Shown: one piece after another, positions 49,090-54,319 of the stretch
Position numbering within the stretch: the first letter of the stretch is position 1
How the letters are laid out: the number at the start of each line of letters is the position of its first letter
Assembly (NCBI RefSeq): GCF_003334315.1
Contig: NZ_QOWR01000002.1
Direction: 5' to 3' (one strand)
Length of the DNA: 64,000 bases
From: Escherichia coli
Lineage (GTDB): Bacteria > Pseudomonadota > Gammaproteobacteria > Enterobacterales > Enterobacteriaceae
The notes under the pieces: model-generated
What the model was told of the DNA's origin: nothing
Databases searched by the model: none
The model's input: the letters and a program-made list of their open reading frames with translations, nothing else
Made by a program: the position numbers and the translations under genes

Positions 49090-49372
49090 ACATTCGTCTT
49101 TAATGCACTGTAAATTATGAATTAATCCTCTAATTTATAGTGCTTTCTATTACCTTATCGCGTAATCCCATTCAGAAAACCATCACAAAAATGAATGAGT
49201 ACAATTGAAAGTATAATTGCAATGTATTTTTTAAGTTTTACTTAATCGATATTTAGATAAACTAATTTTATAAAAAACACAAAATAAAATATCATATTTC
49301 AATGATTAGTAGTCCTTAAATAACAGTTACTAATCATTCTCTTTTCTACTTATCTTTATATAAAGGAATATT

Positions 49373-49924
49373 ATGTCCGCTTTTAAAAAGTCACTTCTTG
49401 TTGCTGGCGTAGCAATGATTCTTTCCAATAACGTGTTTGCTGATGAAGGTCACGGTATTGTTAAATTTAAAGGTGAAGTTATCTCTGCTCCATGTTCTAT
49501 TAAACCAGGTGACGAAGATTTAACTGTAAATCTGGGTGAAGTAGCAGATACCGTACTGAAAAGCGATCAGAAATCTTTGGCTGAACCTTTCACTATTCAC
49601 CTGCAGGACTGCATGCTGAGTCAGGGTGGAACTACTTATTCAAAAGCGAAGGTTACTTTCACTACAGCAAATACCATGACGGGTCAGTCTGATCTTCTGA
49701 AAAATACCAAAGAAACTGAAATCGGCGGCGCCACTGGCGTTGGCGTACGTATTCTGGACAGCCAGAGCGGCGAAGTAACTTTAGGTACTCCGGTAGTAAT
49801 TACGTTCAACAATACCAACAGCTATCAGGAACTGAATTTCAAAGCTCGTATGGAATCCCCAAGCAAAGATGCCACCCCGGGCAACGTTTACGCTCAGGCT
49901 GACTACAAGATTGCTTACGAGTAA
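49373..49924 (+). CDS. ygiL: Fimbrial major subunit-like protein YgiL
   Basis: 183-aa product with signal peptide and C-terminal fimbrial beta-strand YKIAYE. Confidence 0.85.
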   Translation: MSAFKKSLLVAGVAMILSNNVFADEGHGIVKFKGEVISAPCSIKPGDEDLTVNLGEVADTVLKSDQKSLAEPFTIHLQDCMLSQGGTTYSKAKVTFTTANTMTGQSDLLKNTKETEIGGATGVGVRILDSQSGEVTLGTPVVITFNNTNSYQELNFKARMESPSKDATPGNVYAQADYKIAYE

Positions 49925-49974
49925 TCGCATTTGGCCGGGTTCGCCCGGCCACATCATTAACGGATTAATGATAA

Positions 49975-52494: not shown

Positions 52495-53253
52495 ATGAAA
52501 CTAATGCGCTACTTAAATACAAAGAATATCATTGCAGCAGGAGTATTACTCTCCTGTATGAGCAGCATTGCCTGGGGTGCCATCATCCCGGATCGTACCC
52601 GTATCATAATGAATGAGTCAGATAAAGGCGAAGCATTAAAACTTACTAATCAAAGTAAAAACCTGCCCTATCTGGCCCAAACATGGATAGAAGATACGAA
52701 AGGCAATAAATCGCGTGACTTTATTGTCACTGTTCCTCCAATGGTGCGTTTAAATCCCAGTGAGCAAATTCAAATAAGAATGATAACTCAGGAAAAAATT
52801 GCTCAACTTCCTAAAGACAGAGAAACGCTCTTCTATTTTAACGTGCGAGAAATACCGCCCAAAACAGATAAAAAAAATGTGATGCAAGTCACTATGCAGC
52901 ACGCATTGAAACTATTCTGGCGGCCAAAATCCATTGAATTAGAAGACGATGGGGTAATGACTTACGAAAAAGTTGAAATCATTCGTAGAAATGACGGTTC
53001 GATCCGCTTTAACAATAAGATGCCTTATCACGTTACGCTGGGTTATATCGGAACAAATGGGGTAACGATGTTACCACAAACGCAAAGCTTAATGGTAACC
53101 CCTTTTAGCTATGCAAATACGCAGTTTAAAAATGTTCCGTCAACTTTTCAGGTGGGTTATATCAATGACTTTGGTGGATTAAGTTTTTATGAAATAAACT
53201 GCCCTGTAGTAAATAACATTTGTAATATTTCTGTAGCCAACCGAGATCAATAA
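52495..53253 (+). CDS. yqiH: Periplasmic fimbrial chaperone YqiH (PapD-like)
   Basis: 252-aa ORF with signal peptide; start may be ATG at 52504. Confidence 0.85.
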   Translation: MKLMRYLNTKNIIAAGVLLSCMSSIAWGAIIPDRTRIIMNESDKGEALKLTNQSKNLPYLAQTWIEDTKGNKSRDFIVTVPPMVRLNPSEQIQIRMITQEKIAQLPKDRETLFYFNVREIPPKTDKKNVMQVTMQHALKLFWRPKSIELEDDGVMTYEKVEIIRRNDGSIRFNNKMPYHVTLGYIGTNGVTMLPQTQSLMVTPFSYANTQFKNVPSTFQVGYINDFGGLSFYEINCPVVNNICNISVANRDQ

Positions 53254-53254
53254 T

Positions 53255-54319
53255 ATGCGCTACTTGTTAATTGTTATTACTTTTTTTATGGGTTTTAGTT
53301 CATTACCTGCATGGGCAATGGACTGCTATGCTGAACATGAAGGTGGAAATACCGTTGTCATTGGTTACGTACCAAGAATCTCTATCCCCAGCGATGGTAA
53401 AAAAGGTGATAAAATCTGGCAAAGCAGTGAATATTTTATGAATGTTTTCTGTAATAATGCACTACCAGGCCCATCTCCAGGAGAAGAATACCCATCTGCA
53501 TGGGTAAATATAATGATGTTGTTAGCATCAGGTCAAGACTTTTATAATCAAAACTCTTATACTTTCGGTGTAACTTATAATGGGGTTGATTATGATTCTA
53601 CATCTCCACTACCTATTGCAGCACCTGTATGTATTGATATAAAAGGAGCCGGAACCTTCGGGAATGGCTACAAAAAGCCCGCAGTCTGTAGTGGCGGTCC
53701 TGAACCGCAATTATCAGTAACTTTTCCAGTACGAGTGCAGCTATATATTAAGCTAGCTAAAAATGCCAATAAAGTAAATAAAAAACTTGTATTACCTGAC
53801 GAATATATAGCACTTGAATTTAAAGGTATGAGCGGAGCAGGTGCTATAGAAGTAGATAAAAATCTGACCTTCAGGATTCGCGGATTAAATAACATTCATG
53901 TCCTTGACTGCTTTGTTAATGTTGATCTGGAACCAGCTGATGGCGTTGTCGACTTTGGTAAAATAAATTCCCGAACAATTAAAAATACCAGCGTGAGTGA
54001 GACGTTTAGCGTAGTCATGACCAAAGATCCGGGTGCGGCCTGTACTGAGCAGTTTAATATTTTAGGGAGTTTTTTCACTACGGATATTTTGAGTGATTAT
54101 AGCCATCTGGATATAGGTAATGGTCTGCTATTGAAGATATTTCATAACGATGGAACAGCAACGGAATTTAACCGCTTCTCACAATTTGCTTCTTTTTCAT
54201 CGTCTAGTGCGCCTTCGGTCACCGCACCATTCAGGGCAGAACTGAGTGCGAACCCGGCAGAAACGGTTGTTGAGGGACCGTTTAGTAAAGACGTAATCCT
54301 GAAAATCACCTATAACTAG
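53255..54319 (+). CDS. yqiI: Fimbrial adhesin-like protein YqiI
   Basis: 354-aa secreted ORF ending the chaperone-usher cluster. Confidence 0.8.
   Translation: MRYLLIVITFFMGFSSLPAWAMDCYAEHEGGNTVVIGYVPRISIPSDGKKGDKIWQSSEYFMNVFCNNALPGPSPGEEYPSAWVNIMMLLASGQDFYNQNSYTFGVTYNGVDYDSTSPLPIAAPVCIDIKGAGTFGNGYKKPAVCSGGPEPQLSVTFPVRVQLYIKLAKNANKVNKKLVLPDEYIALEFKGMSGAGAIEVDKNLTFRIRGLNNIHVLDCFVNVDLEPADGVVDFGKINSRTIKNTSVSETFSVVMTKDPGAACTEQFNILGSFFTTDILSDYSHLDIGNGLLLKIFHNDGTATEFNRFSQFASFSSSSAPSVTAPFRAELSANPAETVVEGPFSKDVILKITYN

Follow-up and report, generated by a model that had tools for sequence, protein, structure and literature searches.

Uninterrupted ygiL-yqiGHI chaperone-usher operon between ubiK and glgS in Escherichia coli, matching the Yqi-like fimbria of K-12 without its IS2 insertion

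The ygiL-yqiGHI operon of Escherichia coli is listed among the pi-type chaperone-usher fimbriae; its K-12 allele is named IS2::yqiG, and the operon is intact in strains W, B and Crooks (PMC3032704). Yqi-like fimbriae have been described from phylogroups A, B1, D and E (Wurpel et al. 2013, PMC3559732). In K-12, binding of H-NS and of RNA polymerase sigma-70 was mapped to the spacer between yqiC and ygiL (PMC3946193), and a fragment of yqiI, 'yqiI 2.2', contains a spurious intragenic promoter that is repressed by H-NS (PMC7229825). Transcripts of ygiL and yqiG are detectable and inducible, with differential levels in STEC and upregulation of ygiL by BolA in K-12 (PMC6033998, PMC4337573). Published work thus already covers the operon and its assignment to the pi class, the intact copies outside K-12, the IS2::yqiG lesion and the association with H-NS. 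Other described relatives are the Std fimbria of Salmonella, the Pap fimbria, and ExPEC adhesin I (EA/I, also called 'Yqi'), which belongs to E. coli of phylogroup B2/APEC and is stated to be absent from K-12 (Antao et al. 2009, PMC2771359).

We analysed a window of 64,000 nucleotides from E. coli (RefSeq assembly GCF_003334315.1, contig NZ_QOWR01000002.1). Four open reading frames without internal stops were found on the + strand at 49373-49924, 49975-52488, 52495-53253 and 53255-54319 (183, 837, 252 and 354 amino acids, respectively). Within 49373-54319 they encode a major subunit (ygiL), an usher (yqiG), a PapD-like chaperone (yqiH) and a two-domain tip adhesin (yqiI). Family matches and the coordinates of the reading frames thus bear out an earlier note on this DNA, which had assigned these four genes and described their cluster as intact. 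The operon is colinear with that of K-12 HMS174 at 99.8-100% identity, and is located between ubiK (yqiC) and glgS in both. From 47200 to 50054 the window is 100% identical to K-12; beyond this point the identity is 99.84%, IS2 aside. The K-12 operon has the same locus, genes and gene order, and differs by IS2 with its GTTAT duplication and by one residue each in YqiH and YqiI, whereas YgiL is unchanged. Judged by sequence, the IS2 in yqiG would be the only lesion of the K-12 operon. We are highly confident that the locus is the ygiL-yqiGHI operon of the E. coli chromosome, encoding the 'Yqi-like' chaperone-usher fimbria, probably of the pi class, and that it is wild-type and uninterrupted here; no observation speaks against this identification. 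By locus and near-identity it is of the K-12 type, in an allele other than IS2::yqiG.

The first gene, ygiL (49373..49924, + strand), scores 384 bits with the NCBIfam equivalog NF007276, the cut-off of which is 189. Its translation of 183 amino acids has the features of a pilin subunit of a chaperone-usher operon, with a signal peptide that ends in VFA and is followed by DEGHGIVKFKGEVI, an N-terminal donor strand, a Cys41/Cys80 pair and a C-terminal AYE. The outer-membrane usher yqiG (49984..52488, + strand) is uninterrupted, as the earlier note had said. Its stated length of 837 amino acids needs revision: the reading frame reaches upstream to a GTG at 49975, but the RefSeq start in near-identical genomes is the ATG at 49984, so that 837 amino acids is the longest possible reading frame and differs from the annotated protein of 834 amino acids. 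No frameshift or premature stop was found in yqiG. The protein has the full usher architecture in Pfam (PapC_N 35-177, Usher 195-747 and PapC_C 759-811) and aligns to PapC from end to end (residues 34-833 to PapC 1-808, 578 bits; FimD-type ushers reached 291-294 bits in this similarity ranking, which agrees with the pi clade). It is 100% identical to RefSeq WP_000277103.1, annotated in L002, and matches K-12 YqiG exactly from residue 23 on.

The chaperone gene yqiH (52504..53253, + strand) encodes 249 amino acids from its annotated ATG, and was identified by alignment to PapD and by NCBIfam chaperone families. An upstream ATG at 52495 would give 252 amino acids, whereas the RefSeq start in near-identical genomes is at 52504. 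The closest solved relative of YqiH is PapD (146 bits, against 84 bits for FimC), and the invariant residues that anchor the subunit, Arg8 and Lys112 of PapD, are kept (DRTRII vs DRTRAV and ALKLFWRP vs KIKLFYRP, respectively). The last gene, yqiI (53255..54319, + strand), encodes 354 amino acids, for which no NCBIfam model was found. It consists of a signal peptide (residues 1-21), a receptor-binding (lectin) domain (residues 22-218, at 53318-53908) and a pilin domain (residues 219-354). Its nature as a two-domain adhesin was settled because a search of PDB sequences matched a solved domain: residues 22-218 align to 9rwe with E = 3.6e-122 and 180 of 197 residues identical (91%). The C-terminal pilin domain gave a weak match to Pfam Fimbrial (residues 228-354, E = 0.0024).

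In NCBIfam, the usher and chaperone families of the operon are related to those of the Salmonella fimbriae Std, Stf and Ste. The top models were StdB (695 bits) and StdC (149 bits), far under the equivalog cut-offs of 1289 and 370, so the Std proteins are relatives and not orthologues. Std (StdA-D) is a simple pi-type operon; the operon in the window is equally simple and probably of the pi type, with which StdB as the top usher model agrees. Among solved proteins, PapC and PapD are the closest to YqiG and YqiH, with which they share domain architecture and anchoring chaperone residues. In contrast, the minor subunits of the PapH/E/F/K type, the regulators papI/papB and the pair of GATC sites in the spacer for a Dam/Lrp switch are features of Pap that are missing here, and PapG and YqiI are unrelated in sequence. 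A Dam/Lrp phase switch as in pap and std was accordingly rejected for this operon; GATC is absent from 49090-49372, and the nearest copies, at 49044 and 49060, are within ubiK. An invertible promoter element was likewise rejected, since a recombinase gene is lacking.

The IS2 of K-12 (1.3 kb) is inserted inside yqiG, 67-71 nt past the ATG in codons 23-24, and splits the signal peptide. The earlier note had placed it between ygiL and yqiG, which is incorrect, but its absence from this strain was confirmed by alignment to K-12. The window is colinear through the K-12 insertion point, and the 5-bp target GTTAT, located from the K-12 junction sequences and the alignment break points, is present at 50050..50054 (+ strand) as a single copy without IS2 or scar; the single copy implies that the site is empty here.

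Of 5426 complete E. coli genomes, 3246 contain 80% or more of the operon. Disrupted alleles were counted at the IS2 site only: 2908 genomes have an empty site there, and 383 show the K-12 junction. The 25 junction genomes listed of these 383 include MG1655, C600, J53 and other laboratory strains. The intact form is the population norm and the IS2-disrupted laboratory K-12 copy is the exception, so the finding of an intact operon is correct but ordinary. The missing IS2 does not set this strain apart, and the result matters little past annotation, except as a reminder that the K-12 allele is atypical.

The operon is part of a 'Yqi-like' island of 5301 bp (49030..54330; 40.2% GC) that some E. 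coli genomes carry and others lack. Homology to the operon-less L003 and L004 ends at 49029 and picks up at 54331/54333, and in operon-less genomes 72 bp replaces the segment. The neighbour on the left, ubiK (48799..49089, + strand; NCBIfam UbiK equivalog), has its last ~20 codons (49030-49089) within the inserted segment, where they encode a C-terminal tail that is non-ancestral according to a comparison with the tails of operon-less E. coli and of other genera. At the right end, a GC-rich, terminator-like hairpin (54339..54358, - strand) lies just beyond the end of the insertion, next to glgS (54362-54562, - strand). This glgS terminator probably also ends yqi transcription.

The sliding-window calculation of GC content agreed with the earlier note, according to which the operon is more AT-rich than its flanking genes and its upstream region extremely so. 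The segment 49090-54319 contains 40.1% GC against 51.5% in the rest of the window, and is the lowest of all 5.2-kb stretches of the 64 kb (median 51.1%). GC3 is 0.31-0.39 in the four operon genes vs 0.44-0.53 in ribB, ubiK and yqiK. The spacer upstream of ygiL (49090-49372, 283 bp) contains only 23.3% GC.

This AT-rich regulatory spacer (49090..49372, + strand) is identical in sequence to K-12. The association with H-NS claimed in the earlier note is consistent with the published K-12 binding at the ubiK-ygiL spacer (PMC3946193), and the K-12 data together with the identical spacer suggest that ordinary culture probably leaves the operon silent or only weakly expressed. The candidate sigma-70 promoter of ygiL, TCGATA-17-TATAAA, was located at 49246..49274 (+ strand) from the string in PMC3946193, which gives these hexamers as a prediction. 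They are not the same in B1-type alleles, and a second consensus match at 49267-49295 overlaps the published candidate. Directly after the ubiK stop, an AT-rich inverted repeat (49102..49146, + strand) with 16-nt arms that are 88% complementary is followed by TTTCTATT; its arm is perfect in other alleles, and it is a candidate ubiK terminator. The ygiL-yqiG spacer contains two stem-loops (49933..49972, + strand; RNA fold -23.9 kcal/mol, z = -2.8 vs shuffles), one with the sequence GGCCGGG-UUCG-CCCGGCC (49933-49950) and one with an AU-rich 8-bp stem (49953-49972). By analogy with other fimbrial operons, they may act as an attenuator or stabilise the mRNA, either of which would yield more major subunit than usher.

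Following the established chaperone-usher pathway, the operon would work as follows. Transcription would start in the spacer of 23% GC upstream of ygiL, and the stable stem-loop 3' of ygiL would probably shift production towards the major subunit relative to the usher. All four proteins would be exported by Sec, after which YqiH in the periplasm would bind the subunits through donor-strand complementation. The usher YqiG in the outer membrane would take YqiI first, as the tip, and would then polymerise YgiL via donor-strand exchange. The predicted product is a fimbria with the lectin domain of YqiI at its tip, binding a putative receptor. Expression of this fimbria by the strain may be possible, since intact reading frames are necessary for it, though not sufficient.

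How the operon came to be at this site, and intact, could be explained in other ways. The operon occupies this one site in most genomes and in several phylogroups (PMC3559732), and neither an integrase, a tRNA nor direct repeats were found flanking the island, as would fit an operon that is ancestral to E. coli here and has been lost by deletion from the lineages without it, with no horizontal insertion. We consider this improbable. In a ubiK-anchored scan of genome contigs (at least 120 loci), glgS comes straight after ubiK in all sampled glgS-bearing outgroups, among them Citrobacter, Klebsiella, Raoultella, Trabulsiella and Escherichia whittamii. This adjacency also occurs in about 2000 E. 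coli genomes. Since the sample was without E. fergusonii, E. albertii, E. marmotae and Salmonella, the ancestral state is deduced from E. whittamii, Citrobacter, Klebsiella and others. Furthermore, operon-less E. coli retain the UbiK tail '..PAIPPV..' of several other genera, which the window does not, and the GC content of the island is 11 points lower than that of its flanks. These three lines of evidence agree with the foreign origin proposed in the earlier note. The 5.3-kb AT-rich segment, for which relatives have an empty site, is on this comparison best read as a derived insertion carried by most E. coli. The nearest usher relatives outside E. coli are only ~55% identical and lie in the ribB slot, among the matches listed. 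Precise excision of IS2 from a K-12-like ancestor, with this strain as a revertant, would account for the near-identity of the flanks to K-12, but is very improbable given the one clean GTTAT without a scar, the 10 substitutions vs K-12 downstream of the IS2 site, and the empty site shared by so many genomes compared with a junction whose listed carriers include laboratory strains. Least tenable is an assignment to EA/I, the virulence fimbria of avian and uropathogenic E. coli, with which the window shares gene names, four-gene order and orientation, and an adhesin fold family with related lectin domains (9rwu/9rwv, E = 5e-26). The 4975-bp EA/I cluster (100% identical in Nissle 1917) is located elsewhere, in the slot between ribB and yqiD ~1.3 kb away, where relatives also occur in several other genera among the matches listed. 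It has a higher GC content (41-48%) than the Yqi-like operon, and was found in 993 genomes vs 3246 for the operon of the window. Membership of EA/I would require near-identity to the UTI89/IMT5155-type cluster adjoining ribB; its proteins are only 61, 56, 49 and 39% identical to YgiL, YqiG, YqiH and YqiI of the window, respectively, which refutes this assignment.

An inserted, intact Yqi-like operon could still be permanently cryptic, if the fimbria is never made owing to a defective promoter, a missense change or total silencing by H-NS. H-NS binding in K-12 at a spacer identical to that of the window and the H-NS-repressed promoter within yqiI are in line with this, as may be the single residue changes vs K-12 in YqiH and YqiI. 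Moreover, the operon has been inactivated repeatedly and independently in many other genomes, by insertions of IS1, IS3 and IS903B, by a frameshift in yqiI and by an internal stop in yqiG, which suggests weak or relaxed selection for its upkeep. Nevertheless, we regard a dead operon as unlikely. Between divergent alleles, dN/dS is 0.01-0.13 in each of the four genes, a sign that their proteins are under purifying selection. The transcripts of ygiL and yqiG in STEC and the induction of ygiL by BolA in K-12 also argue against it, and so does the exact allele of the window, which occurs at 100% identity in many genomes. An intact operon, probably silent or weak in ordinary culture, remains our preferred reading. 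The alleles differ more than nearby core genes, with a synonymous divergence of 0.80 for the lectin domain of YqiI and of 0.10-0.27 for ygiL, yqiG and yqiH, compared with 0.04-0.05 for ubiK and yqiJ. Tentatively, the island could have arrived more than once, with alleles far older than the nearby core genes and with a rewritten UbiK tail in every carrier, including the K-12 reference protein. Since this divergence goes together with a dN/dS of at most 0.13, adhesin specificities may perhaps be kept or exchanged by recombination among lineages.

Strains like this one, or K-12 cured of IS2, are the right background for binding tests of the Yqi-like fimbria. Such tests are timely now that lectin-domain structures are available in the PDB for this adhesin family (9rwe and relatives).

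Several minor elements were also noted. A search for Rfam families gave none within 49030-54330, the nearest being the FMN riboswitch of ribB. A perfect 11-nt inverted repeat (49301-49311/49328-49338) is altered in one arm only in B1-type alleles; this change is uncompensated, so that the comparison of alleles does not support the repeat as a structure or as an operator. Promoter-like sites were not enriched across the region (10 observed vs 16.6 expected). The best consensus match of the region, TTGACC-18-TATATT, is a candidate antisense intragenic promoter in yqiI (53507..53536, - strand), and falls within the published 'yqiI 2.2' fragment, the primers of which map to 53429-53578.

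The four open reading frames of the operon, ygiL (49373-49924, 183 aa), yqiG (49975-52488, 837 aa counted from GTG), yqiH (52495-53253, 252 aa) and yqiI (53255-54319, 354 aa), all lie on the + strand at exactly the positions proposed in the earlier note. In RefSeq, a near-identical genome has its usher annotated from ATG 49984 (834 aa) and its chaperone from ATG 52504 (249 aa), and the Shine-Dalgarno context speaks for these ATG starts. None of the four genes in the window contains a frameshift or stop, so the possibility of a broken yqiG falls away and the operon is intact, as the earlier note had claimed. 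Its AT-richness relative to the flanks and the very AT-rich upstream region were likewise borne out. The GC content was 40.1% in 49090-54319 versus 51.5% in the remaining window, the minimum among all 5.2-kb windows of the 64 kb. GC3 was 0.31-0.39 in the four operon genes versus 0.44-0.53 in ribB, ubiK (yqiC) and yqiK, and the ubiK-ygiL spacer had a GC content of only 23.3%. A further low-GC stretch, 54250-55750 (glgS-yqiJ region, 37-43% GC), flanks the operon on the glgS side.

The window was aligned to the K-12 substrain HMS174 to locate the IS2 element. Positions 47200-50054 were 100% identical to K-12 upstream of IS2, and 50046-56964 were 99.84% identical to K-12 downstream of it. The K-12 junctions read ...TTATCC GTTAT + TAGACTGGCC...(IS2)...CAAATCCA + GTTAT CATCATT.... 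Because GTTAT stands at both junctions, it was duplicated by IS2 as its target; in the window it occupies 50050-50054. These are nt 67-71 of yqiG and fall in codons 23-24, within the signal peptide MYKKLKLTTISELIKNIYCSLSVIIIGCASAYA, so the K-12 insertion lies inside yqiG and not in the ygiL-yqiG interval. In contrast, yqiG of the window is uninterrupted at this position. The K-12 usher downstream of IS2 is identical to the window's YqiG from residue 23 on. Hence, the earlier statement that the window lacks the K-12 IS2 holds, given its colinearity with HMS174, whereas the placement of IS2 between ygiL and yqiG does not. "IS2::yqiG" has already been tabulated for K-12 in the E. coli W genome paper, which lists the operon as intact in W, B and Crooks and classes it as pi type (PMC3032704).

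At least 80% of the operon interval was present in 3246 of the 5426 complete E. coli genomes, many of them 100% identical to the window. A 70-bp probe spanning the empty IS2 site matched at full length in 2908 genomes, against 383 genomes for the K-12 yqiG/IS2 junction; the 25 listed genomes with this junction included MG1655, C600, J53, ER1709 and other laboratory strains. The intact state is therefore not unusual, the window carries the common intact form, and the earlier note attached too much weight to intactness. In other genomes the usher was disrupted independently by IS1, IS3 or IS903B; an STEC strain had a frameshifted yqiI, and yqiG was broken by an internal stop, likewise as independent events. 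Inactivated copies were found in comparison loci L006 (6055-7120) and L129 (1785-4283) and in hits H1, H3, H4 and H18 of the first genome search. The operon is thus often lost. Several genomes with an inactivated operon also had yqiK as a pseudogene. The first search matched 77 plasmid places in all. One of them, on the 114-kb plasmid pHeN100_01 (NZ_CP044438.1; L127 5001-6811), is a 1.8-kb yqiG 3' fragment of 95.7% identity, which is flanked by IS1 and IS26, adjoins phsABC and looks like chromosomal DNA captured by IS elements.

In about 2000 E. coli genomes the operon is missing at the ubiK-glgS site. Homology to the window then ends at 49029 and restarts at 54331, with 72 bp replacing 5301 bp. 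The conserved ubiK 5' end served as the anchor for a scan of species-representative genomes. Among the at least 120 loci listed, ubiK was directly followed by convergent glgS in Citrobacter, Klebsiella, Raoultella, Trabulsiella, Pseudocitrobacter and Escherichia whittamii, and no fimbrial operon occupied this interval in any of the genera sampled; among these matches, the operon in this slot was found in E. coli only. The left junction of the insertion falls within ubiK, whose 3' end is 49030-49089. UbiK of operon carriers, including K-12, has 96 aa and a distinct 19-residue end instead of the PAIPPV tail, which occurs in operon-less E. coli, E. whittamii, Citrobacter, Enterobacter, Phytobacter, Pseudescherichia and Atlantibacter. 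Since this tail is kept in E. coli without the operon and in several other genera, the K-12 reference tail is the derived form. The outgroup ubiK-glgS adjacency, the distribution of the PAIPPV tail and the 11-point GC deficit imply that the operon segment is a derived insertion, in agreement with the horizontal acquisition proposed earlier. The insertion segment (49030-54330) has no integrase or tRNA, and no direct repeat flanks it.

A B2-type genome (L005) carries a second four-gene operon between ribB and yqiD (1666-6640), in the same orientation, which raises the question of whether the window's operon is the ExPEC adhesin I (EA/I) 'Yqi' fimbria. This ribB-slot operon measures 4975 bp, is 100% identical in Nissle 1917, and the EA/I cluster has a reported length of 4975 bp (PMC2771359). 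However, its proteins share only 61, 56, 49 and 39% identity with the window's YgiL, YqiG, YqiH and YqiI. Given the different slot and the low protein identity, we rejected an EA/I identity; the window's operon is of the K-12 'Yqi-like' type, to which the EA/I data on chicken lung colonisation and glycan binding (PMC2771359, PMC12442223) are not transferable. According to Wurpel et al. (PMC3559732), the two related types are mutually exclusive and belong to different phylogroups. At least one genome, L003, lacks both operons. EA/I-type operons were counted in 993 genomes. They or their relatives occupied the ribB slot in L078 (4835-9802), L091, L051, L120, L037 and others, with relatives in E. 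whittamii, Pluralibacter, Enterobacter, Citrobacter sp. FP75, Klebsiella spallanzanii and Trabulsiella (among at least 120 loci listed); the ribB-yqiD slot looks ancient as a fimbrial site. In the window, the yqiD/ribB-downstream region where B2 strains carry this operon (47250-47999) is also low in GC (38-41%).

YgiL passed the NCBIfam equivalog for a fimbrial-like protein (384 bits, cut-off 189). The translated protein carries a signal peptide and an N-terminal donor strand in which hydrophobic residues alternate, together with a pair of cysteines and the Tyr motif at the C-terminus. The usher has the complete PapC_N + Usher + PapC_C architecture and equals RefSeq WP_000277103.1 at every residue. 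Its top solved relative is PapC, aligned over the entire mature length (578 bits, versus 291-294 bits for FimD-type ushers); that of YqiH is PapD, and both basic residues that anchor the C-terminus of the subunit are conserved. YqiI matched none of the NCBIfam models. Over residues 22-218 it shares 91% identity (180/197) with PDB 9rwe, a 197-residue domain titled "Fimbrial protein", and shows remoter kinship to 9rwu/9rwv, 9rww and 9rx0; its last 127 residues gave a weak Pfam pilin match. These two matches identify YqiI as a two-domain tip adhesin with a structurally solved receptor-binding domain. Bovine strain L128 carries a YqiI allele with exactly the 9rwe sequence; this B1-type allele differs from the window's.

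The ubiK-ygiL spacer is identical in the window and K-12, so the K-12 data on this spacer apply directly. In genomic SELEX it was bound by sigma-70 RNA polymerase and H-NS, with a predicted ygiL promoter, TCGATA-17-TATAAA (PMC3946193), which we located at 49246-49274; this agrees with the H-NS association suggested earlier. An H-NS-repressed promoter within yqiI comes from a study of spurious transcription (PMC7229825), whose primers map to 53429-53578 and enclose the top promoter-like site of our scan (53536-53507, antisense). BolA overproduction induces ygiL in K-12, and expression of ygiL and yqiG differs among STEC isolates (PMC4337573, PMC6033998), so transcription of the operon is possible. 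Between ygiL and yqiG, the spacer forms a GGCCGGG-UUCG-CCCGGCC hairpin and an AU-rich second stem (-23.9 kcal/mol, z = -2.8), which, as in other fimbrial operons, may lower read-through or stabilise the ygiL message. A pap-like or fim-like phase switch has no basis, because the ubiK-ygiL spacer contains no GATC site and no recombinase gene was found. Over the entire window, GATC occurred 284 times versus 234 ± 14 in dinucleotide-preserving shuffles.

The operon is textbook and previously catalogued; the earlier reading of the locus was correct except for where exactly IS2 lies. This strain may make the fimbria. The sole mildly new thread, which we rate modestly, is the allelic divergence of the locus and its possible recombination. 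Relative to B1-type L128, synonymous divergence was only 0.04-0.05 in flanking ubiK and yqiJ; in the operon it rose to 0.10 (yqiG), 0.24 (yqiH), 0.27 (ygiL) and 0.80 (YqiI lectin domain). dN/dS was 0.01-0.13 throughout (0.06 in the lectin domain), which indicates purifying selection on the operon proteins, and the synonymous divergence above that of the flanking genes indicates alleles far older than the core genome around them. Divergence peaked in the lectin domain (53318-53908), with 80-89% nucleotide identity to L128 and, in sliding comparison, to L006, another B1-type genome. Such a pattern suggests that the alleles recombined with diverged sources, above all in the receptor-binding domain.

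Elsewhere in the window, Rfam identified two tandem Sib antitoxin RNA genes (SIB_RNA; 57372-57521 and 57747-57896, - strand; 148 and 142 bits) between yqiK and hldE, where operon-less L003 and L004 have an annotated ibs type I toxin gene (ibsE in L004). An FMN riboswitch lies in the ribB leader (48529-48677, - strand; 121 bits), as also annotated by RefSeq. Matches to naRNA4, a REP-derived nucleoid-associated RNA, and to the ES173 sRNA fell at 3580-3656, 14629-14699 and 20480-20543, with one site matching naRNA4 on both strands.
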